A stretch of DNA of 64,000 nucleotides from the NCBI GenBank assembly GCA_963704165.1, contig CAVPHD010000008.1:10279-74278 (forward strand). The letters are read 5' to 3'. The translations under genes and the position numbers were made by a program. The notes below the pieces were generated by a model. The model was not told the origin of the DNA, searched no databases, and saw nothing but the letters and a program-made list of their open reading frames with translations. The number at the start of each line of letters is the position of its first letter. The first letter of the stretch is position 1. This document shows positions 54,341 to 64,000 of the stretch, piece after piece. Origin of the DNA: an uncultured delta proteobacterium (GTDB lineage Bacteria; Myxococcota_A; UBA9160; SZUA-336).

Positions 54341-55297
54341 CTAAGGGTCGAGCGGGCTGCGCACCCCGCGTCCGCCGCGGTTCAGCACGTGCGTGTAGAT
54401 CATGGTCGTCTTCACGTCGCGGTGGCCGAGCAGCTCCTGCACGGTGCGGATGTCGTAGCCCGCAACCAGAAGGTGTGTCGCAAAACTGTGTCGGAGCGTG
54501 TGGCAGCTCGCGGGCTTCGCGATTCCCGCCGCGCGAACTCCACGCTTCACCGCGCGCTGCACGACCGTCTCGTGCAGGTGGTGGCGCCGCTCGATGTCCG
54601 ACTCCGGATCGCGGAAGCGCCGGCTCGCGGGGAAGACCCACTGCCAGCCCCATTCGCGCGGCGCGCCCGGGTACTTCCGCGCGAGCGCGTCGGGAAGCGC
54701 GACGGCGCCGGATCCCGATGCCAGGTCCTTCGAATGCAGCGCGCGGGCGTGCGCGAGCTGCGCGCGAAGATCCGCCACGAGCGATCGCGGCAGCATCGTC
54801 ACGCGGTCCTTCCGTCCCTTGCCGTCGCGCACCGTGATCTCGCCGCGCTCGAACTCGAGATCCTTCACCCGCAGCCGCAGACACTCGAGCAGCCGCAGAC
54901 CCGCGCCGTAGAGCAGCGCGGCGACCAGACGCGACTCACCCGCGAGCGTCGCGAGCAGCGCCCGGACCTCGGCCTCTGTGAGCACGACCGGCAGGCGCGC
55001 CGGCATTCGCGCGCGAACCAGATCGTGAAGCTCGAGCTCGAGCGCCGGCGCGTCGAGAACGTTGCGGTACAGGAAGACGAGCGCCGCCAGCGCCTGGTTC
55101 TGCGTCGACGCCGCGACCCGACCGGCGACCGCGAGATGGGAGAGGAACGCGCTGACCTCGGCCGCGCCCATCGCGCTCGGGTGTCGCTTCCCGTGGAAGA
55201 GCACGAAGCGCTTCACCCACTGCGCGTACGCCTGCTCCGTGCGCCGGCTGTAGTGACGGACTCGACACGCCTCGCGCACCCGGTCGAGCAGCCGCAC
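54341..55297 (-). CDS. intI: Integron integrase
   Basis: [36 protein letters not shown], IntI-specific insert ([16 protein letters not shown]), [21 protein letters not shown]; start uncertain. Confidence 0.96.
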
Positions 55298-55591
55298 CTG
55301 CCGCTCCGAGCCCGCTCTGCCCCGCCCGCTCGTCCCGCCCACCTGAGGTCTCCCCGCGCGTGACGGACCGCAGAGCCGACGTCCCGAAGGCGCGACCGCG
55401 ACCCGACGCACGCACTCTCGAGGGGCGAGAGACGAGAGCGAGAACCGAGCGCCCCGCAGCGCAGGCCACTCGTCGCCCGATCCTAGCGACATCCCCGAGC
55501 CCCCGGCAGTCACCGCCCACATCGCGCTCGCGCAAGTGTTACCGAGGCGCCACGTTCCGACGAAGGAGCTGAGCAGGGACGGAGACTTTGG

Positions 55592-55644: not shown

Positions 55645-55668
55645 GGTGCAGCACAATATTTGTTAGGC
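55645..55668 (+). other. attI recombination site (crossover G|TTAGGC at 55662)
   Basis: GTTRRRY core preceded by AT-rich CAATATTT, between divergent intI and first cassette; complementary GCCTAA at end of cassette 1. Confidence 0.75.
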
Positions 55669-55685: not shown

Positions 55686-55714
55686 TTGCTTGCTTGTATA
55701 TACAGATGTATGCT
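55686..55714 (+). promoter_or_regulatory. TA-cassette internal promoter with palindromic operator
   Basis: TTGCTT-17 nt-TATGCT enclosing palindrome TGTATATACA (55695-55704); GTG start 7 nt downstream, suggesting a leaderless mRNA. Confidence 0.6.
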
Positions 55715-55720
55715 TGCGGG

Positions 55721-56011
55721 GTGCGCTTCGCGTGGGATCTCCGCAAGAGTGCAGAGAACCTACGAGTGCGCGGATTCGACTTCGAATTCGCGACCCTGGT
55801 CTTCGAGGGTGCCACGCTGGAGCGTCAAGACGAACGCCGGGACTACGGAGAGCATCGAGTTGTCGCGATCGGATTGGCTCAGGGGCTCGCGCTCACCGTC
55901 GTCTACACAGATCGGGTCGAGGCCGGCGTTGCAGTTCGTAGAATCATCTCGGCTCGGATGAGCAATCGCCATGAACGCCAAGCGTACTTCGAAGCGCTCG
56001 CGCAAGAGTGA
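55721..56011 (+). CDS. brnT: BrnT family toxin (cassette 1)
   Basis: FAWDLRKSAENLRVRGFDF, DYGEHR, VVYTDR, RIISAR. Confidence 0.9.
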   Translation: MRFAWDLRKSAENLRVRGFDFEFATLVFEGATLERQDERRDYGEHRVVAIGLAQGLALTVVYTDRVEAGVAVRRIISARMSNRHERQAYFEALAQE

Positions 56012-56282
56012 GAAGCCCCGTCGGGGTAGAGCGAACCTAGCCCGTCTCCGCAAAGCGACGGAGCGGACGATTCGGCGAAGTTCTCCACCGGAACTTGCCG
56101 ATCTTCCGGCCGACTTCTTCGAGTCGGCGTCGATCGTTCATCCCGCGCCGAAGCAGCCGATCTCGCTGCGTGTCGATGAGGACGTTCTGAAGTGGTTCAA
56201 AGCACAGGGACCCAGATATCAGTCGCGAATCAACGCGGTGCTCCGCGCCTACATGGCAGCGATTCAAAAGGGTGCTGCCTAA
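55971..56282 (+). CDS. brnA: BrnA family antitoxin (cassette 1)
   Basis: KQPISLRVDEDVLKWFK..G.RYQSRINAVLRAY. Confidence 0.9.
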   Translation: MNAKRTSKRSRKSEKPRRGRANLARLRKATERTIRRSSPPELADLPADFFESASIVHPAPKQPISLRVDEDVLKWFKAQGPRYQSRINAVLRAYMAAIQKGAA

Positions 56283-56596: not shown

Positions 56597-56729
56597 GCCC
56601 AACAAGGGCTTGCAGCTGCCGAGCGCCCGCTTTGGTCTGTCCACCACCGGGAGCGTCTGGCATCATACGGTGTAGGTTCAATCAACAACGCGGCGCGGGC
56701 TCTCGCAGCTGAAGCCCAAGTCGTTAGGC
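56597..56729 (+). repeat. attC site (133 bp), cassette 2
   Basis: R'' GCCCAAC, L'' GCTTGCAGCTG / L' CAGCTGAAGC with extrahelical G, R' GTTAGGC. Confidence 0.9.
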
Positions 56730-57188: not shown

Positions 57189-57218
57189 TGATCTTCCCCG
57201 GGTAAAGTGGACACGGGG

Positions 57219-58088
57219 TTAAGAGACTGAGACAGTCGGGATCTTCTCATAGTCCTCCGGTGACTTGTAGCCGAGTGTCGAGTGCAGGCGCGTTCGGTTG
57301 TAGAAGCCTTCGATGAACTCGAAGATCGCGGCGCGTGCTTGCTCCCGCGTTCGATAGTGCTCGTGGTACACGAGCTCGGTCTTGAGCGTGTGGAAGAAGC
57401 TCTCCGCGACGGCGTTGTCGAGGCAGTTGCCCGGTCGGCTCATGCTGCACACGATTCCGTGTCGATCGAGCAGCTCTTGGTAGGACGCCGAGGCGTACTG
57501 ACCGCCCCGATCCGAGTGATGCACGAGTCCCGGCGCGGGCCGCCGGCGCGCGAGGGCCATTCCGAGTGCGTCGAGCGCGATCGCCTTCGCGACGCTCGCA
57601 TTCATTGCCCAGCCCACGATGCGGCGCGAGAAGAGATCGATCACGATCGCCAGGTGCAGCCAGCCTTCCCCCGTGCGAACGATCGTGATGTCGGCCGCCC
57701 AAACTTGGTCCTTCCGATCCGCGTGGAAGCGTCGTTCGAGCACGTTCGGAGCGGACGGCATCTCCTCTCGCTTGGTTGCAATCGCGCGAAAGCGACGCTT
57801 GGTCTTCGAGCGGATTCCCTCGTCGTGCATGAGCCGCGCGACTCGATGGCGTCCGCAGGCGACGCCTTGCTTGCAAAGCGCGGCGTAGACACGCGGCGAG
57901 CCGTAGATCGCAGGACTGCGCGCGTTGATCCTTCGAATCCGCTCGGTGAGCGCAGGGTTCTCATGCTCGCGCACGCTCCGAGGCCGACACCGCCACGCGT
58001 AGTAGCCGCTGCGGGAGACCTCGAGGACCGCGCACATCACGCCTACTCGGGAAGTCCCCCGATGCTCCTGGACGAACCGGAACTTCAT
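57219..58088 (-). CDS. IS3 OrfB DDE transposase
   Basis: WAADIT, HHSDRGGQY, DNAVAESFF..LK.E, YNRTRLHSTLGY. Confidence 0.95.
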   Translation of the reverse strand: MKFRFVQEHRGTSRVGVMCAVLEVSRSGYYAWRCRPRSVREHENPALTERIRRINARSPAIYGSPRVYAALCKQGVACGRHRVARLMHDEGIRSKTKRRFRAIATKREEMPSAPNVLERRFHADRKDQVWAADITIVRTGEGWLHLAIVIDLFSRRIVGWAMNASVAKAIALDALGMALARRRPAPGLVHHSDRGGQYASASYQELLDRHGIVCSMSRPGNCLDNAVAESFFHTLKTELVYHEHYRTREQARAAIFEFIEGFYNRTRLHSTLGYKSPEDYEKIPTVSVS

Positions 58089-58390
58089 TCCTGGTCGTCC
58101 GCGAAGTAGGCCAGTGCATTTTTCAGGATGTCCCGCTCTTGGGTCATCCGTTCGAGCCTCTTGCGCAGATCGGCGTTTTCCTGGGCGTCAGGTGAGCGAA
58201 CGCCCCGATCCGGGAACACCTCCGCGGGCCGCTTCTTCTCGAGCGGGTCCTTCCAGCGTTGAAGCAAGCTGCGGGCAATGTCGAGGCTCTGCGCGACGTC
58301 GGTCGCTGCGCGGCCCTGCTTCAGGAGAGCGACGGCGTCCTTCTTGAACTGCGGAGTGAACGTTCTTCGAATCCGTGATTCTCGAGGTAT
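58085..58390 (-). CDS. IS3 OrfA (HTH); start codon appears as ATA
   Basis: RRTFTPQFKKDAV...LQRW...ERDILKNALAYF open frame after GAGG RBS; ATGA overlap with orfB. Confidence 0.8.
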   Translation of the reverse strand: MPRESRIRRTFTPQFKKDAVALLKQGRAATDVAQSLDIARSLLQRWKDPLEKKRPAEVFPDRGVRSPDAQENADLRKRLERMTQERDILKNALAYFADDQE

Positions 58391-58453
58391 GAGGCACCTC
58401 TCTGCGGATCATGGTAGACCCTGTCGAGGTGTCCACTTCCTTGGGGAAGTGCC

Positions 58454-58565
58454 GACGAGCGCCCGCTTCGGTCTGTCCACCACCGGAAGCGTCTGTCATC
58501 ATTCGGTGTAGGTGCAATCAACAACGCGGCGCGGGCTCTCGCAGCTGAAGCCCAAGCCGTTGGCC
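58454..58565 (+). repeat. Right part of a second attC of the cassette-2 type
   Basis: 58457-58565 matches 56621-56729 at 101/109 by manual comparison; ends GTTGGCC. Confidence 0.9.
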
Positions 58566-58599
58566 AACACCCACTGCCTATCACGAAAGGAGATCCCCC

Positions 58600-60062
58600 A
58601 TGAGCAACAAGAAGAAACTCACCACCAGCGGCGGCTGCCCCGTCGTCGACAACCAGAACGTCATGACCGCCGGTCCGCGTGGCCCGCAGCTGCTACAGGA
58701 TGTCTGGTTCCTCGAAAAGCTCGCTCACTTCGACCGCGAGGTGATCCCCGAGCGGCGCATGCACGCCAAGGGTTCGGGCGCGTACGGCACTTTCACCGTC
58801 ACCCACGACATTGCGAAATACACCCGCGCCAAATTCCTCTCGGCAATCGGCAAGAAGACCGAAGTCTTCGCCCGCTTCTCCACCGTGGCCGGCGAGCGCG
58901 GCGCGGCCGATGCCGAGCGCGACATTCGTGGCTTCTCCGTCAAGTTCTACACCGAGGAAGGCAACTGGGACATGACCGGCAACAATACGCCGGTGTTCTT
59001 CCTGCGCGATCCTCTGAAGTTTCCCGACCTCAACCATGCGGTCAAGCGCGATCCGCGCACCAACCTGCGCAGTGCCGAAAACAACTGGGACTTCTGGACA
59101 CTGCTACCCGAAGCGCTGCACCAGGTCACCATCGTCATGTCGGACCGCGGCCTGCCCGCCAGTTACCGCCACATGCACGGCTTCGGTTCACACACCTTCA
59201 GCTTCATCAACGCGCGAGAACGAGCGCTACTGGGTCAAGTTCCACTTCAAGTCGCTGCAGGGCATCAAGAACATGACGGACGCCGAAGCCGAGGCCGCCG
59301 TCGGCGTTTGCCGGGAAACGCACCAGCGCGACCTGTATGAAGCCATCGAGCGCGGCGAGTTTCCCGAAGTGGCAATTTGCCGTGCAGGTGATGCCGGAGA
59401 AGGATGCCGAGAAAGTGCCCTACCATCCCTTCGACCTGACCAAGGTCTGGCCGCACAAGGACTACCCGCTGATCGAAGTCGGTATCCTCGAACTCAACCG
59501 CAATCCGGAGAATTACTTCGCCGAGGTCGAGCAGGCCGCCTTCAATCCTGCGGCCGTGGTGCCTGGCATTTCCTTCTCGCCGGACAAGATGCTGCAGGGC
59601 CGCCTGTTCTCGTATGGCGACGCGCAGCGTTACCGGCTCGGCGTGAATCACCAGCAGATTCCGGTGAATGCGCCGAAATGCCCGGTCCACAACTACCACC
59701 GCGACGGCGCCATGCGCGTCGATGGCAATCACGGCAGCACGATTGGCTACGAGCCGAACAGCAAAGGCGAGTGGCAGGAGCAGCCGGACTTCCGCGAGCC
59801 ACCGCTGGCGAATCGACGGTGCCGCCGACCACTGGAACTTCCGCGAAGATGATGACGATTACTACAGCCAGCCGCGCGCCTGTTCCAGCTGATGAGCCCG
59901 GCGCAGCAGCAGGTGCTGTTCGAGAACACCGCCCGCTCGGTCGGCGGCGCCTCCAAAGAAGTGCAGTTGCGCCACGTTCGCAATTGCCTGAAGTGCGACC
60001 CGGCCTACGGCACCGGTGTGGCCAAGGCGCTGGGCGTTCCGTTGAGTGAAGTGCCAAAGTAA
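58600..60062 (+). CDS. katA: Monofunctional heme catalase (cassette 4; several frameshifts)
   Basis: [53 protein letters not shown]; frame changes near 59215, 59365, 59810 and 59880. Confidence 0.9.
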
Positions 60063-60070
60063 CCGGCGTC

Positions 60071-60139
60071 GGCTGACCCAGCGCTCAACCGGACGCTGCG
60101 CGAAAAAGCTGTGCAGCGCCGGTCAGCTCTACGTTGGGC
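60071..60139 (+). repeat. attC site (69 bp), cassette 4
   Basis: Degenerate R'' GGCTGAC; arm ACCGGACGCTGCGC pairs with GTGCAGCGCCGGT; R' GTTGGGC. Confidence 0.8.
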
Positions 60140-60166
60140 GGCGTCAGCAGCTCGGAGAAGTGACCG

Positions 60167-60706
60167 ATGAGCGACCAGACGTTGACCTGCACCTGCAGGA
60201 AGGTTGCCCTTGGGCTTGAAGGCGGCCCGATCGTGAGCGTTGAGTGCCTCTGCGCTGACTGCCAGAACGCGGCGACGCAATTGCAGTCGTGGCCTGATGC
60301 TCCTCTCGTATTGGATCAGAATGGTGCGACGCGGTTCGTCCTCTACCGCAAGGACCGCGTTCGGTGTCTCACGGGAGAGGAGTGGTTGCGAGAGCACCGG
60401 TTGACCGAGGATTCCAAGACACGGCGCGTCGTTGCGGTGTACTGCAAGACACCCATGTTTCTGGAGTTCAAGAACGGGCATTGGCTGAGCATCTACGGCG
60501 GTCGTTGGCCGGAAGAAACCCTGCCTCCACTCGAGATGCGGACGATGTGCCGCGATCGGCCCGAAGATGTCGAGCTCCCAGACGACGTGCCCAACCCCAA
60601 GACTCACACCCTGGCGTTCTACGCGAGACTCCTTCGAGCTTGGGCTGCCATGGGGTTTCGAACGCCAGAGGTGGGGTTTGTGCACGGAAAGCTCGAAGCC
60701 CAGTGA
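60167..60706 (+). CDS. GFA/Mss4-like Zn-binding protein (cassette 5)
   Basis: CTC...ECLCADCQ...TRRVVAVYCKTPMF. Confidence 0.75.
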   Translation: MSDQTLTCTCRKVALGLEGGPIVSVECLCADCQNAATQLQSWPDAPLVLDQNGATRFVLYRKDRVRCLTGEEWLREHRLTEDSKTRRVVAVYCKTPMFLEFKNGHWLSIYGGRWPEETLPPLEMRTMCRDRPEDVELPDDVPNPKTHTLAFYARLLRAWAAMGFRTPEVGFVHGKLEAQ

Positions 60707-60759
60707 CTTGCTGGTCGGAGGCAGACGCCGCCCAACAAGGCGTATCTGGACTCCTCGTT

Positions 60760-60984
60760 CAAGCGAATTCTGAATCGGCGATCGACCTGAGGCGGTGAGT
60801 TCGAACTGCAGTCGTATCTCCGGCCTCTTTCGTGGAGCGCTCGGCTCCGGGCCATGATGGGAAGTCGCGCGGGGTGCCAATCGCTGACAGCGGCCTTGGT
60901 GGCCAAGCTTGTTGTCGGCATCGTCCCCGCGCCGGTCAGAACCCGTGCGCCATCAGGAACGGTCGCTCTCGGTGCAGATCGAGT
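60760..60984 (-). ncRNA. Putative bridge RNA/seekRNA of the IS1111 element (boundaries approximate)
   Basis: Contains segments matching both sides of the attC target and both element ends, flanked by stems (GCGCGGGG/CCCCGCGC, TTGGCC..., CCGG/CCGG). Confidence 0.75.
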
Positions 60985-61610
60985 TCAGGGCACTCCGCAC
61001 TCATTTCGGAGTTGGAAGGGCTCTTCGTTGCGCCACACCGCCCAGACGATACGCGCGAGCTTGTTGGCGAGTGCGACGGCGGCCTCGTTGTGGCCGCGAG
61101 CCGTCTCGCGCGCGAGTGCCCAGGCGCGCAGGCCGTCGCGTGGGGCGTTGCTGCGCTTGGCGTGGGCGAGCACGGAGCGCGCGCCGTGGACGAGCAGCAT
61201 GCGCAGGCAGGGATCGCCGCGTCTGCTGATGCGGCCGAGCTCGCGCAAGAGACTCCGAACAGTGTTGAGCCGCACGGTTCTCGCCGCCATCCAGCTCGAG
61301 CGCATGCGGTGCAGCGCCGCGAGCACGTGCTGATCGACGGTCTTGATCGGGACCGTGCAGAGACCGTCGTTGCGCAGCGCTTGGAGCCGCGCCCTCGCGT
61401 CGGCGCGGTCGGTCTTGTTGCGCAGCAGGTGGCGGCGAACCGCATGGGGCGGAAGCAGGACGACCGAGCGTCCGTAGCTCTCCGCGGTTCGGCCCCAGAA
61501 GTGCGCGGTGCCGCAGGCTTCCATCACGATCGTGGCGGGCGCTTGCGCGGCGAGGAAGCTCGAGAACTGGCCGCGCGTCAGCCGACGCCGATCGTTGTAT
61601 GCTCGTGCAC
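60985..61610 (-). pseudogene. IS110-family transposase remnant
   Basis: MHEHTTIGV then stop; VMEACGTAHFWGR, KTDRADA, RISRRGD..LR.LLVHGARS, VALANKLARIVWA; first Asp motif and Ser-containing segment deleted. Confidence 0.88.
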
Positions 61611-61876
61611 GTGGGCTCCTCCTCCCCAGAGCTTCTGGGGTCGAGGCGACTCTGGCACTCGATGCCCCGCGAGTCGCGGGGGGAGTCCATCCCATCGCTG
61701 CAGCTGACCGGGCCACGGCGCGTTCCAATCGGTCTTCGCTATCGTTTGGCATTGAAAATCGGGCGCTTCCGGCCACCAGCGGCGGCGCGCCCGGCAGCTG
61801 AGCGCCCGATCCGTGGGGCGGACCGTAGCGACCCGAGGTACCGGTAAGTCGAACTGCGTACGATGCGAGGTTCCCG

Positions 61877-63094
61877 ATGAGCACCACCATCTCGACCAGC
61901 GACTCCAACGAACGTTCGGATGTGGGGTCATGGTGGCAACGTCACCGGCGACAAGTTTCGCTCGCTGTCCGAATCGTGCTGGTTCTCTCCATCGCGGTCG
62001 GAGGGATCTGGTGGTTCCTCTTTGCGCCGGTCGCGGTCACCACCCACACGGTGGCGACCGGAACAATCGCCGCTGAGGTCATGGGCACCGGCACACTGGA
62101 GGCGCGCACTTCAGCGATTGTCGGACCCAAGATCGGCGGGCTGATCGTGAGTATCTCCGTCGATCAAGGGGATCGGGTGAAGGCTGGCTCCCTCATGTTT
62201 CAGTTGGAGGACAGCGACATCAGGCAGCAGGTCCAGATGGCGAAATCCGAGGTCGCGGCAGCGATGGCGACATTGGATAGGCTTGGTGCCGCGCGGCGGC
62301 GGGCGGCGGCGGTGCTCGCTCAGGCGAAGACGAACCACAAGCGGATTGACGAGTTGCTCTCGAGCAAGGTGGTGTCGCAGCAAGATCTCGACAAGGCGTT
62401 CGAGGCCTTGTCGATCGCCGAAGCCGAGTTGTCCACCGCTGGTGCGGCAATCATCGAAGGAGAGAAGCGGATGGATGCCGCGGAACGATTCCTGGAGTAC
62501 CAGCGAGCCCGCCTCCACGACACCACGATCGAAGCGCCGTTCGATGCGCTGGTCGTGCGGCGCGAGCGAGAGGCTGGCGACGTCGTAACCGCCGGGACGT
62601 CGGTGCTGCAACTGGTGTCGACGGATCAGATGTGGATCACGTCGTGGGTGGACGAGACCGAGTTGGCGCGACTCGCCAAGGACCAGCCGGCGCGCGTGGT
62701 GTTCCGCTCCGAGCCCGGCGTTGCCTATGAGGGCGTGGTGGCACGAGTCGGGCGCGAGGCCGACCGCGAGACGCGCGAGATCGTGGTGGACGTGCGGGTG
62801 GAGAAGTTGCCCGCGAACTGGGCCGTGGGCCAGAGAGCCGAAGTCTACATCCAGGTCGACCGCAGAGACGGCGTGACAACCCTCCCGGCGTGGCTGGTTC
62901 TGGTTCGAGATGGAAGGACGGGCGTCATGTGGGACGACGACGGCACGGCCAAGTGGCGGGAGATCACGGTAGGGCTGCGCGGGCGCGAGAACGTCCAAGT
63001 CACCGGCGGCTTGTCGCCCGGCGATGTCGTCGTGAGCCTGGCGGCGCAGAGTTCGGGGCCGCTGCGAGACGGGCGGAGGATCAGGCCGGAATGA
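61877..63094 (+). CDS. Efflux periplasmic adaptor subunit (MacA/HlyD-like)
   Basis: GTGTLEA, VDQGDRVKAG, IEAPFDA, VDET, VTGGLSPGD. Confidence 0.9.
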   Translation: MSTTISTSDSNERSDVGSWWQRHRRQVSLAVRIVLVLSIAVGGIWWFLFAPVAVTTHTVATGTIAAEVMGTGTLEARTSAIVGPKIGGLIVSISVDQGDRVKAGSLMFQLEDSDIRQQVQMAKSEVAAAMATLDRLGAARRRAAAVLAQAKTNHKRIDELLSSKVVSQQDLDKAFEALSIAEAELSTAGAAIIEGEKRMDAAERFLEYQRARLHDTTIEAPFDALVVRREREAGDVVTAGTSVLQLVSTDQMWITSWVDETELARLAKDQPARVVFRSEPGVAYEGVVARVGREADRETREIVVDVRVEKLPANWAVGQRAEVYIQVDRRDGVTTLPAWLVLVRDGRTGVMWDDDGTAKWREITVGLRGRENVQVTGGLSPGDVVVSLAAQSSGPLRDGRRIRPE

Positions 63095-64000
63095 ACCTGG
63101 CCGCCCGCGACATCCGGTACAGCCTTGGCCGCTTCGTCCTCACGACCATCGGTGTGGGGATGCTTCTGATGGTCGTGATGGGTATGGGTGGCATCTATCG
63201 CGGGCTGGTGGATGATGCGTTGGTTGTGACACGCGGCGTCGGAGCCGACCTGTGGGTCGTGCAGCACAGCACGCGCGGACCCTTCGCCGAAGTCTCCCGC
63301 CTGCCGCGCAGCGTCGTTGATCGTGTTGCCGCGGTGCCGGGTGTGACCGATGCCCGCGAGTTTGTGTTTCACACCATTCAGCGCGAGCACCGGGGCCAGC
63401 CGCTGCGAATGGGCGTGCTGGGCCTCGGCTGGCCCACCGACAAGGGCGAGGGGCTGCCCCTGGTCGCCGGTCGGGTGCTCGCCCAGAACCACTACGAGAT
63501 GATCGCCGACGAGTCGCTGGGACTGGCGCTCGGTGAAAGGCTGCGGCTGGGCAAGGAGACCTATGCGGTGGTCGGGCTGACCCGCGCCATGGTCTCTTCC
63601 GGCGGCGACGGTATCGCGTGCTTTACCAGCCGCGATGCACAGGCAATTCAGTTCGACGAGCCTGGCGAATCGGCCCGGCTGGAGCGCCAGGCCCGACGCG
63701 CTCGCGCGGACGAGATCGACTTTGGCCGTACGCAGCCGTCGGTACTGGAGCGAGCGTCGGGCTCGTCTCGCGCCATCGCCGCGCTCCCGGGTCCGTCGGT
63801 GAGTGCCGTGATCGCACGGCTCATGCCCGGCGCCGACCCGGACGCCGTGCTGCGGACGTTCGATGGTTGGAGCGATGTCACGGCGTATTCCGCGGCGCAG
63901 CAGGAGGACCTGCTCCTGAAGGGGAGCGTGGACCGCGCTCGCCGGCAGATTCTGCTCTTCCGCGTGCTCCTCACCGTCATCTCCGCGGTCATCATGGCCC
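63091..64000 (+). CDS. ABC transporter permease (MacB/FtsX-like), runs off window end
   Basis: MNLAARDIRYSLGRFVLTTIGVGMLLMVVMGMGGIYRG, ADLWVVQ; ATGA overlap with adaptor gene. Confidence 0.85.
   Translation, partial: MNLAARDIRYSLGRFVLTTIGVGMLLMVVMGMGGIYRGLVDDALVVTRGVGADLWVVQHSTRGPFAEVSRLPRSVVDRVAAVPGVTDAREFVFHTIQREHRGQPLRMGVLGLGWPTDKGEGLPLVAGRVLAQNHYEMIADESLGLALGERLRLGKETYAVVGLTRAMVSSGGDGIACFTSRDAQAIQFDEPGESARLERQARRARADEIDFGRTQPSVLERASGSSRAIAALPGPSVSAVIARLMPGADPDAVLRTFDGWSDVTAYSAAQQEDLLLKGSVDRARRQILLFRVLLTVISAVIMA

Follow-up and report, generated by a model that had tools for sequence, protein, structure and literature searches.

The 64,000-nucleotide (nt) stretch of an uncultured delta proteobacterial genome analysed here (assembly GCA_963704165.1, contig CAVPHD010000008.1; hereafter 'the window') carries, at 60743-61695, an insertion sequence (IS) that splits an attC site of an integron, and this raises the question of what an element is whose recombinase gene is broken while its guide RNA gene is not. 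A first, sequence-only reading of the window described it as an attC-targeting IS1111/IS110 element with a readable bridge/seekRNA and a dead recombinase, possibly mobilised in trans, and all the strings and coordinates it gave are present in the sequence. We find that it is very probably a 953-base-pair (bp) derivative of the IS1111-attC group at the usual attC position of a chromosomal integron, with a recombinase gene that lacks the segments for two catalytic residues and an RNA predicted to pair with attC and with the element's own ends. The element's identity, its ends and two deletions, its integron context, the conserved structure of its RNA and the covariation between target loop and flanks are direct observations, which we take in turn.

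For comparison, we collected 78 related loci from a transposase profile search of metagenome-assembled genomes labelled delta proteobacterium, Acidobacteriota, Terriglobia, Thermoanaerobaculia, Gemmatimonadota and Eisenbacteria. The element starts with TATCTGG at 60743 and finishes with TCCCAT at 61695, flanked by a CG dinucleotide on either side (60741-60742 and 61696-61697). Alignment of the relatives gives family ends ATGRRATGGACTCCTCC...GGAGGAGTCCAGATA with an 11-bp subterminal repeat (TGGACTCCTCC / GGAGGAGTCCA) that is perfect in most of them, and, outside the repeats, terminal extensions of 6 nt (ATGRRA) and 4 nt (GATA). Subterminal inverted repeats of roughly 11-13 bp with short asymmetric extensions are a trait of IS1111 elements, and two others are present: a long non-coding region 3' of the transposase gene (242 nt from the stop codon at 60985-60987 to the right end at 60743, with only about 85 nt upstream of the start codon), and DEDD (RuvC-like) and C-terminal Tnp/Transposase_20 domains, both of them truncated. 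The other 71 of the 72 elements in which both ends were called measure 1351-1583 bp, with a median of 1410 bp when the 953 bp of the window's element are counted.

The plasmid relatives point to the same group. A transposase search of 72,556 plasmids ranks ISPa25 first (51.3% identity), followed by ISPa62 and ISPa21 (48%). The IS1111-attC group includes ISPa25, ISPa21, ISKpn4 and ISPst6 (Tetu & Holmes 2008 and Post & Hall 2009, cited in PMC11187229). In class 1 integrons, ISPa25 and a relative from Klebsiella are each found with qacEdelta1 on one side and a resistance cassette on the other, and their transposase gene reads toward the cassette, as in the window. Their ends are TG/ATGGAATGGACTCCTCC...GGAGGAGTCCATATA/CG-ACTTGTTAGCC, and the ISPa25 junction, ..CCATATA-CG-ACTTGTTAGCC, lies at the same distance from the R'' AAC as the window's. 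All three insertions use one attC position and orientation: GCCCAAC-AAGG-CG/IS in the window, GGCTAAC-AAGT-CG/IS for ISPa25 and GCTAAC-AATT-CA/IS in Klebsiella. The attC-targeting IS1111 subgroup named in the first reading is represented in this comparison by ISPa25, which is reported to target attC, at 51% identity and with the same insertion position and orientation.

That the target is an attC, as had been proposed, follows from an integron integrase 5.4 kilobases (kb) upstream of it, whose TIGR02249 match (468.5 bits against a curated cut-off of 265 bits) spans 54347-55291 of the window (G000:C8:64625-65569), and from canonical attC sites in the same array. The expected traits of such sites are present: R''/R' boxes on an imperfect palindrome with unpaired bases, perfect boxes in the sister sites at 56597-56729 and in an uninterrupted homologue elsewhere (L142), and cassettes between intI and the interrupted site, in an array beside the integrase. 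In the interrupted site itself, L'' and L' (CTGCAGCTGACCGGGC / GCCCGGCAGCTGAG) leave an extra G and an extra A on the top strand, the right part is 76-85% identical to uninterrupted copies (L002, L142 and L143), and the site folds with z = -2.6 to -2.7 once the IS is taken out. For the bottom strand of the intact attC at 56597-56729, a single long imperfect hairpin is predicted at -37.7 kcal/mol (z = -3.64; none of 200 shuffles as good). As the first reading had predicted for a site without the IS, uninterrupted homologues carry a single CG: L142 reads GCCTAACAAGG-CG-CTGCAGATGACC...GTTGGGC, with canonical GCCTAAC...GTTGGGC boxes and AACAAGG-CG-CTGCAG around the insertion point, and L002 reads GCCGAACAAGC-CG-CCGCAGCTGAC, that is, AACAAGC-CG-CCGCAG. 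These are paralogous or homologous attC copies; no empty allele of the locus itself was found among the 31 other genomes of the family.

The transposase gene has lost two internal parts. The sole long minus-strand frame in the element spans 60985-61908, with partial Pfam matches (DEDD_Tnp_IS110 profile positions 37-152 and Transposase_20 positions 53-81), whereas intact homologues have roughly 346 residues and are 80-85% identical to the remnant over its surviving parts. At the first junction HEHTTIGV is followed, in a different frame, by RRRLTRGQF, where the intact homologues P0002 and P0003 read ..HE(H/N)TTIGVDLAKSVFE..SLRRRLTRGQF..; at the second LLRELG is fused to RISRRGDP, where they read ..LLRELGIAIP...KLGRISKRGDP... 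Coverage by tblastn is confined to residues 21-148 and 260-347 of P0003, and together with the junctions this places the deletions at about residues 10-29 and 149-265. Aligned to IS621 (PDB 8wt6), residues D10, E53, D90, D93 and S258 correspond to D11, E60, D102, D105 and S241, and mutation of any of these five abolished recombination by IS621 (PMC11208158). The deletions thus took catalytic parts, the counterparts of IS621 D11 and S241, as the first reading had supposed, and spared both ends, the subterminal repeats and the RNA; with D10 and S258 both gone, the recombinase is predicted to be dead.

The RNA gene lies in the non-coding region that follows. We built a covariance model, R1, from nine 3' non-coding regions of relatives of the same class, which align in conserved blocks. 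It gives 91 matches in 92 sources, with one copy directly after the transposase gene in 77 of the 78 related loci (there is no match in L107), and it also matches ISPa25 (71.1 bits), the Klebsiella element (53.3 bits) and ISPa21 (50.3 bits), while an Rfam scan of 58000-64000 at E ≤ 1 returned no relevant family. Over 73 distinct rows, 91.7% of the cells at model pairs are paired, compared to 35-41% with slid partners, and 27 of the 37 model pairs show compensatory changes on both sides. From 5' to 3', the RNA has two small hairpins, stems P1 and P2, an internal loop, hairpin P3 and helix P4, which encloses a second loop around a P5/P6 hairpin and itself covaries (CGAC/GTCG, CGGAC/GTCCG, GGACT/AGTCC and GCGGA/TCCGC). 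The window's copy breaks 2 of the 37 model pairs, against a median of 4 in its relatives, and differs at 3 of the 61 columns conserved at 95% or above; one of the three is a U-to-C change by which the donor guide now pairs perfectly with the element's own ATGGGA end.

Four guide-like segments had been picked out in this region by the first reading, and in this covariation-supported structure they fall in loops rather than in stems, 1 and 2 forming opposite sides of the target loop and 3 and 4 those of the donor loop. The target loop, with segments 1 (ACAACAAGC, 60915-60907, minus strand) and 2 (GCTGTCAGCG, 60891-60882, minus strand), sits between P2 and P3, helices that are 96-98% paired with compensatory changes. 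Across the family it is hypervariable and the donor loop conserved. Its 5' side (CAACAAGCU in the window) is the reverse complement of the right flank, with 7 of 9 positions complementary in the predicted pairing to the top strand of the window's CTTGTTG, and 9 of 9 in L054, L084, L087, L100, L103, L105 and L108, whose targets are unrelated. In some members the boundary between loop and stem is displaced by one base, so that a fixed register misses matches of segment 1; we therefore scored it with offsets, the same three for own and cross pairs. Of 49 distinct loop-5' sequences, 30 then reach at least 7 of 9 complementary positions against the right flank of their own element, compared to 162 of 2352 cross pairs (6.9%), and none of 10000 permutations reached the observed sum.

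The 3' side of the target loop repeats the last bases of the left flank, followed by CG. Its own-flank matches average 3.59 of 6, against 1.79 for cross pairs (again reached by 0 of 10000 permutations), with values of 0.90, 0.84 and 0.73 at positions -1 to -3 compared to 0.26-0.36 for cross pairs. Loops of 9 nt pair contiguously, whereas those of 10 nt, as in the window, have a single bulged base past the third position: at -4 to -6 a one-base shift gives 0.60/0.77/0.47, against 0.40/0.33/0.13 in the direct register. The 'extra T' noted in segment 2 is therefore there, but as the regular bulge of 10-nt loops and not as an oddity. Covariation between guide and target among homologues, one of the checks that the first reading proposed, is thus present for the target loop, and the two loop sides match opposite target strands on either side of the insertion point, as expected of a bridge/seekRNA. 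The match to the top strand comes first and that to the bottom strand second, which is also the order in IS1111 seekRNAs (PMC11187229).

Some lineages of the family have been re-targeted to non-attC sites (L087-L094, all in a single Terriglobia chromosome, and L095-L099), for instance with guide CACAUGUCC against flank GGACATGTG, and the eight full copies in that chromosome look like a natural re-programming of the guide followed by a burst of copies. A handshake-type guide was sought in the dinucleotide after GAUACG, without a significant result against the first two right-target bases (own 0.62, cross 0.48; 834 of 10000 permutations) or a difference against the last two left-target bases (own 0.58, cross 0.59). 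A guide role toward the CTGCAG target was also considered for the ACUGCAG that follows segment 4, and rejected: UGCAGUC is conserved throughout the family, irrespective of the target, and part of it belongs to helix P4.

The second loop reads the element itself. Segments 3 (TCCCATC, 60862-60856) and 4 (AGATACG, 60819-60813), both on the minus strand, stand on either side of the conserved P5/P6 hairpin and match the element ends; the 7/7 agreement first noted for segment 4 extends to 8/8 of the predicted circle junction (AGATACGA). On one side of the loop UUCCAUCA is complementary to TG-ATGGRA, and on the other AGAUACGA equals ..AGATA-CG-A, with AGAUACG fitting CAGATA-CG across the family. In the RNAs of ISPa25, ISPa21 and the Klebsiella element the corresponding letters are AUAUACG and the right end is CCATATA, and the ISPa21 and Klebsiella (ISKpn4-like) RNAs have UACAG opposite a left end CTGTA. 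Such an end-matching second loop, closed by P4 and P5/P6, is a further trait of bridge/seekRNAs, although independent changes in the donor loop are few. Read from alignments alone, the right end (60757-60775) also contains a -35-like TTGAAC, which is TTGACA in some relatives; on circularisation it would come to lie about 17 nt before TGGGAT/TGAGAT of the left end (61683-61697), with the family's TG 2 bases upstream, in the manner of an extended -10. These putative elements resemble the junction promoter described for IS1111 elements.

Several observations weigh against the interpretation given so far. The two repeat arms in the window agree at only about 9 of 11 positions, and the R' box of the interrupted attC, GTGGGGC, fits GTTRRRY at 6 of 7. 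The left-flank CG is unique to the window's copy, TG being found in 60 of the 62 distinct left junctions of relatives, and it creates an A-C mismatch with the 5' side of the donor loop. Counts of model pairs (91.7%) lean toward the model structure because the alignment behind them, A3, was fitted to it, and the permutation results (0 of 10000) overstate independence because related loci share ancestry. Within the RNA, a pair of the upstream hairpin is broken and the 3' strand of P4 has an extra T. Three points concern expression: no sequencing run on record as RNA contains the stretch, the best match among runs of any kind covering 0.14 of the sampled words; the element points against the direction in which the cassettes are transcribed; and an integrated copy lacks the junction promoter described in the literature. 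Finally, the RNA may be intact because the deletions are recent, instead of through selection.

The flanking dinucleotides bear on a further part of the first reading. CG is indeed present on both flanks, but this is not a family feature: on the right the dinucleotide varies among relatives (CG in 38 of 65, then CT, CA, TG and others), and since the left-hand TG is nearly constant while the right-hand one varies, TG appears to act as part of the element. The 'CG duplication' is a peculiarity of the window's copy. In relatives L032-L109, TG stands at the left junction of 60 of 62 distinct elements regardless of the target, one donor guide pairs with TG, and the other three guides carry CG.

Could the four matches be coincidences in a GC-rich non-coding tail that encodes no guide RNA at all? 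They are short (7 nt), and the palindrome CAGCTG in the target eases alternative registers (GUCAGC, for example, also fits GTCAGC further out), but the conservation of the RNA fold and of its loop positions across 77 of 78 loci, loop-flank covariation that no permutation reached, and homology to the RNAs of ISPa25, ISPa21 and the Klebsiella relative make this scarcely credible. It is only slightly less implausible, and still very improbable, that the flanking repeat is a generic intergenic palindrome of the repetitive extragenic palindromic (REP) kind and the element an ordinary REP-targeting IS1111, even though REP sequences are the target of other IS1111 members (PMC11187229), the genome has only three copies of the repeat at BLAST level and the R' box is imperfect. 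Against it stand an IntI above the curated cut-off 5.4 kb upstream, an interval filled by cassette-sized open reading frames (ORFs) that are each followed by sites with R''/R' boxes, the L142 homologue with its canonical boxes, and an insertion point equal to that of ISPa25 in the attC sites of class 1 integrons.

The more serious alternative concerns what the element can still do. In the sequence-only reading it was a candidate for a working non-autonomous mini-IS, similar to a miniature inverted-repeat transposable element (MITE) and mobilised in trans by a related transposase. Trans mobilisation is possible from structure alone, as the element retains its two ends, its subterminal repeats and an undamaged RNA; in published work, cargo flanked by IS ends was moved (PMC11187229); and on contig 12 of the same genome an apparent attC cluster includes three sites that differ from the target at one position. 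An independent two-ended derivative of about 492 bp occurs in another genome, G060 (contig 12, 724-1251; loci L013/L120), in the same IS family and at the same attC type; it retains the right end, a degenerate left end, the first and last few codons of the transposase gene and the best-scoring RNA of all (192.6 bits). However, the assembly of the window's genome, which is 84% complete, yielded neither an intact family transposase, which had been suggested as a thing to look for, nor a second copy of the guide RNA. The element is single-copy there, no second copy of the window's deletion form was found in the genome or in metagenome contigs, and an exact 26-nt scan for the deletion 2 junction had no match in metagenome contigs. 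In a class sample of 151 genomes, 13 carry the RNA, at 23 places: 6 with a complete transposase gene, about 7 with one truncated internally or at its 5' end, 6 without a transposase gene and the rest cut by contig ends. Only 2 of the 23, the window's element and that of G060, keep both ends without a complete transposase gene, and most degraded copies are right-end relics that have lost the left end. We therefore regard a functioning mini-IS as unlikely, and give an equally low chance to the bolder form of the idea, in which these two elements would be the first natural 'RNA-only' mini-ISs, with their own bridge RNA as sole cargo, moved in trans by related transposases; if that were true, such an element would bring its own target specificity, for an environmental attC class, into any cell with a compatible recombinase.

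Having lost two essential parts of its recombinase gene, the element is likely immobile unless a related recombinase is supplied. It cannot make that enzyme itself, and the assembly contains no intact homologue; most probably, then, it is a relic that no longer moves but has kept its RNA gene undamaged. It is in this respect an ordinary relic of an already known kind, as bridge/seekRNAs of IS1111 elements, attC-targeting ones included, have been published. From work on IS621, ISEc11 and ISKpn4, an intact relative would be expected to excise as a circle; its donor loop would hold the circle junction, ..CCAGATA-YG-ATGRRA.., and its target loop both attC strands on either side of the CG, after which a tetramer of the DEDD/Ser recombinase would exchange strands. 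The insertion splits the attC and would likely block excision of that cassette. More broadly, the attC-targeting IS1111 lineage, known from clinical class 1 integrons, extends to chromosomal integrons of uncultured soil and sediment bacteria, in which a natural guide addresses another class of attC. The 77 related RNAs amount to a natural series of re-targeted guides, for several kinds of attC and some non-attC sites, from which pairing rules could be learned, for instance the tolerance of a one-base bulge or the fixed TG beside the left end. None of these findings overturns current understanding.

Table 1 Coordinates of the element, its parts and the surrounding integron features, as positions of the window.
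Feature	Positions	Strand	Details
IS1111-attC-group deletion derivative, 953 bp	60743..61695	minus (transposase sense)	ends match family ends ATGRRATGGACTCC ... GGAGTCCAGATA
Right subterminal inverted repeat CGAGGAGTCCA (transposase sense)	60747..60757	minus	followed by 4-nt extension GATA
Left subterminal inverted repeat TGGACTCCCCC	61679..61695	minus	with 6-nt extension ATGGGA
Bridge/seekRNA gene	60800..60968	minus	covariance model R1, 178.7 bits
Target loop, 5' side CAACAAGCU	60906..60914	minus	between P2 and P3
Target loop, 3' side CUGUCAGCGA	60881..60890	minus	equals left flank CTG-CAG + CG + A, one bulged U
Donor loop, 5' side UUCCCAUCAU	60854..60863	minus	complementary to left end ATGGGA and the bases just before
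Donor loop, 3' side GGAGAUACGACUGCA	60807..60821	minus	AGAUACGA = right end + CG + first left-end base
Transposase remnant, frameshifted at deletion 1	60985..61610	minus	GTG start 61608-61610, stop 60985-60987
Deletion 1 junction	61577..61593	minus	about 20 codons gone (P0003 residues 10-29), including D10; frame shift
Deletion 2 junction, LLRELG/RISRRGDP	61225..61242	minus	about 117 codons gone (P0003 residues 149-265), including S258
Integron integrase gene intI	54341..55522	minus	TIGR02249 integrase_gron, 468.5 bits; Pfam Phage_integrase and Phage_int_SAM_4
Intact attC, same array	56597..56729	plus	R'' GCCCAAC, R' GTTAGGC, CAGCTG-containing L''/L' pair
Cassette ORF (GFA / DUF6151-like) whose attC carries the IS	60167..60706	plus	Pfam GFA, 29.4 bits
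Interrupted attC, left part	60730..60742	plus	R'' GCCCAAC (60730-60736), AAGG, CG (60741-60742)
Interrupted attC, right part	61696..61819	plus	CG, L'' CTGCAGCTGACCGGGC, L' GCCCGGCAGCTGAG, R' GTGGGGC (61813-61819)

Along the plus strand, intI is followed by a GTTAGGC box (55662-55668, a putative attI), a BrnT/BrnA cassette, a small ORF, the intact attC and a cupin cassette; the array continues with an IS3-family element, the 3' part of another attC, a catalase gene, a short attC (GCTCAAC...GTTGGGC at about 60081-60139) and the GFA-like cassette, which ends 24 nt ahead of the R'' box of the interrupted site. The first cassette past the putative attI box (55694-56282) encodes a BrnT toxin / BrnA antitoxin pair. 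The IS3-family element (about 57216-58450) also interrupts an attC, whose 3' part (58450-58566) is nearly identical to the interior of the intact site; its orfB (57219-58088) has rve and HTH_21 domains, and a short frame upstream of orfB (58085-58267) has no Pfam match. The catalase cassette (58600-60062) is in at least two frames, with 58600-59340 matching Pfam Catalase 1-217 and 59337-59852 matching 245-381, and this is either a frameshifted gene or an assembly error. Elsewhere in the genome, on contig 12 (G000, about 195170-199585, the L002 region), four target-like sites of the form AACAAG..CG..GCAG lie on one strand, 1-2 kb apart, three of them one mismatch from the window's target. They look like a second, putative attC cluster, at which no integron integrase above the cut-off was found. 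Genome-wide, the target pattern with 2 mismatches has 53 matches, compared to 114 for a reversed control, and thus no excess; this one-mismatch cluster is the only notable result of that scan.

Among known systems, MITE-like non-autonomous IS derivatives arise by an internal deletion that removes the transposase and keeps both ends, and MITEs are defined by amplification to many copies. The window's element, in contrast, is single-copy, and it needs and carries its own guide RNA. In ISPpu9 of Pseudomonas putida, likewise of the IS110 family, a small RNA gene, Ssr9, lies downstream of the transposase, and copies of it also exist without one; that system differs in targeting REP sequences and in that its modular movement was shown experimentally (PMC12288879). 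With IS621 (PMC11208160, PMC11208158), the window's element shares a single RNA with target-binding and donor-binding internal loops, each of which reads one DNA strand per side of the central dinucleotide, and a type of recombinase with a DEDD RuvC-like domain and a Tnp domain that holds the catalytic Ser. Unlike in IS621, the RNA gene comes after the transposase gene, in the right end, the guides follow the IS1111 order (top strand first), the subterminal repeats are long, and handshake-type covariation is not detectable in the family.

The nearest comparison is the IS1111-attC group itself. Right-end bridge RNAs of IS1111 elements have been predicted for 93% of ISfinder entries (PMC11208160). 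In PMC11187229, the seekRNAs of the attC-targeting ISKpn4 and ISPst6 co-purified with their transposases and that of ISPa25 was predicted, while RNA expression, transposase binding and the need for the RNA in movement are experimental only for ISKpn4, ISPst6, ISEc11 and ISPa11. The window's element inserts, as this group does, between R'' and L'', 4 nt and a dinucleotide after AAC, its RNA end turned toward the cassette ORF; its family has near-identical 11-bp subterminal repeats, TG/ATGGAA.. and ..ATA/CG ends, and an RNA 3' of the transposase gene that the same covariance model matches. It differs in its host, an uncultured environmental bacterium with a chromosomal integron instead of a clinical class 1 integron; in being a single, internally deleted copy; in a right end of CAGATA instead of CATATA, with the matching change in the RNA; and in a guide, CAACAAG / CTGCAG instead of TAACAAT / TTGAAC, that addresses another class of attC.

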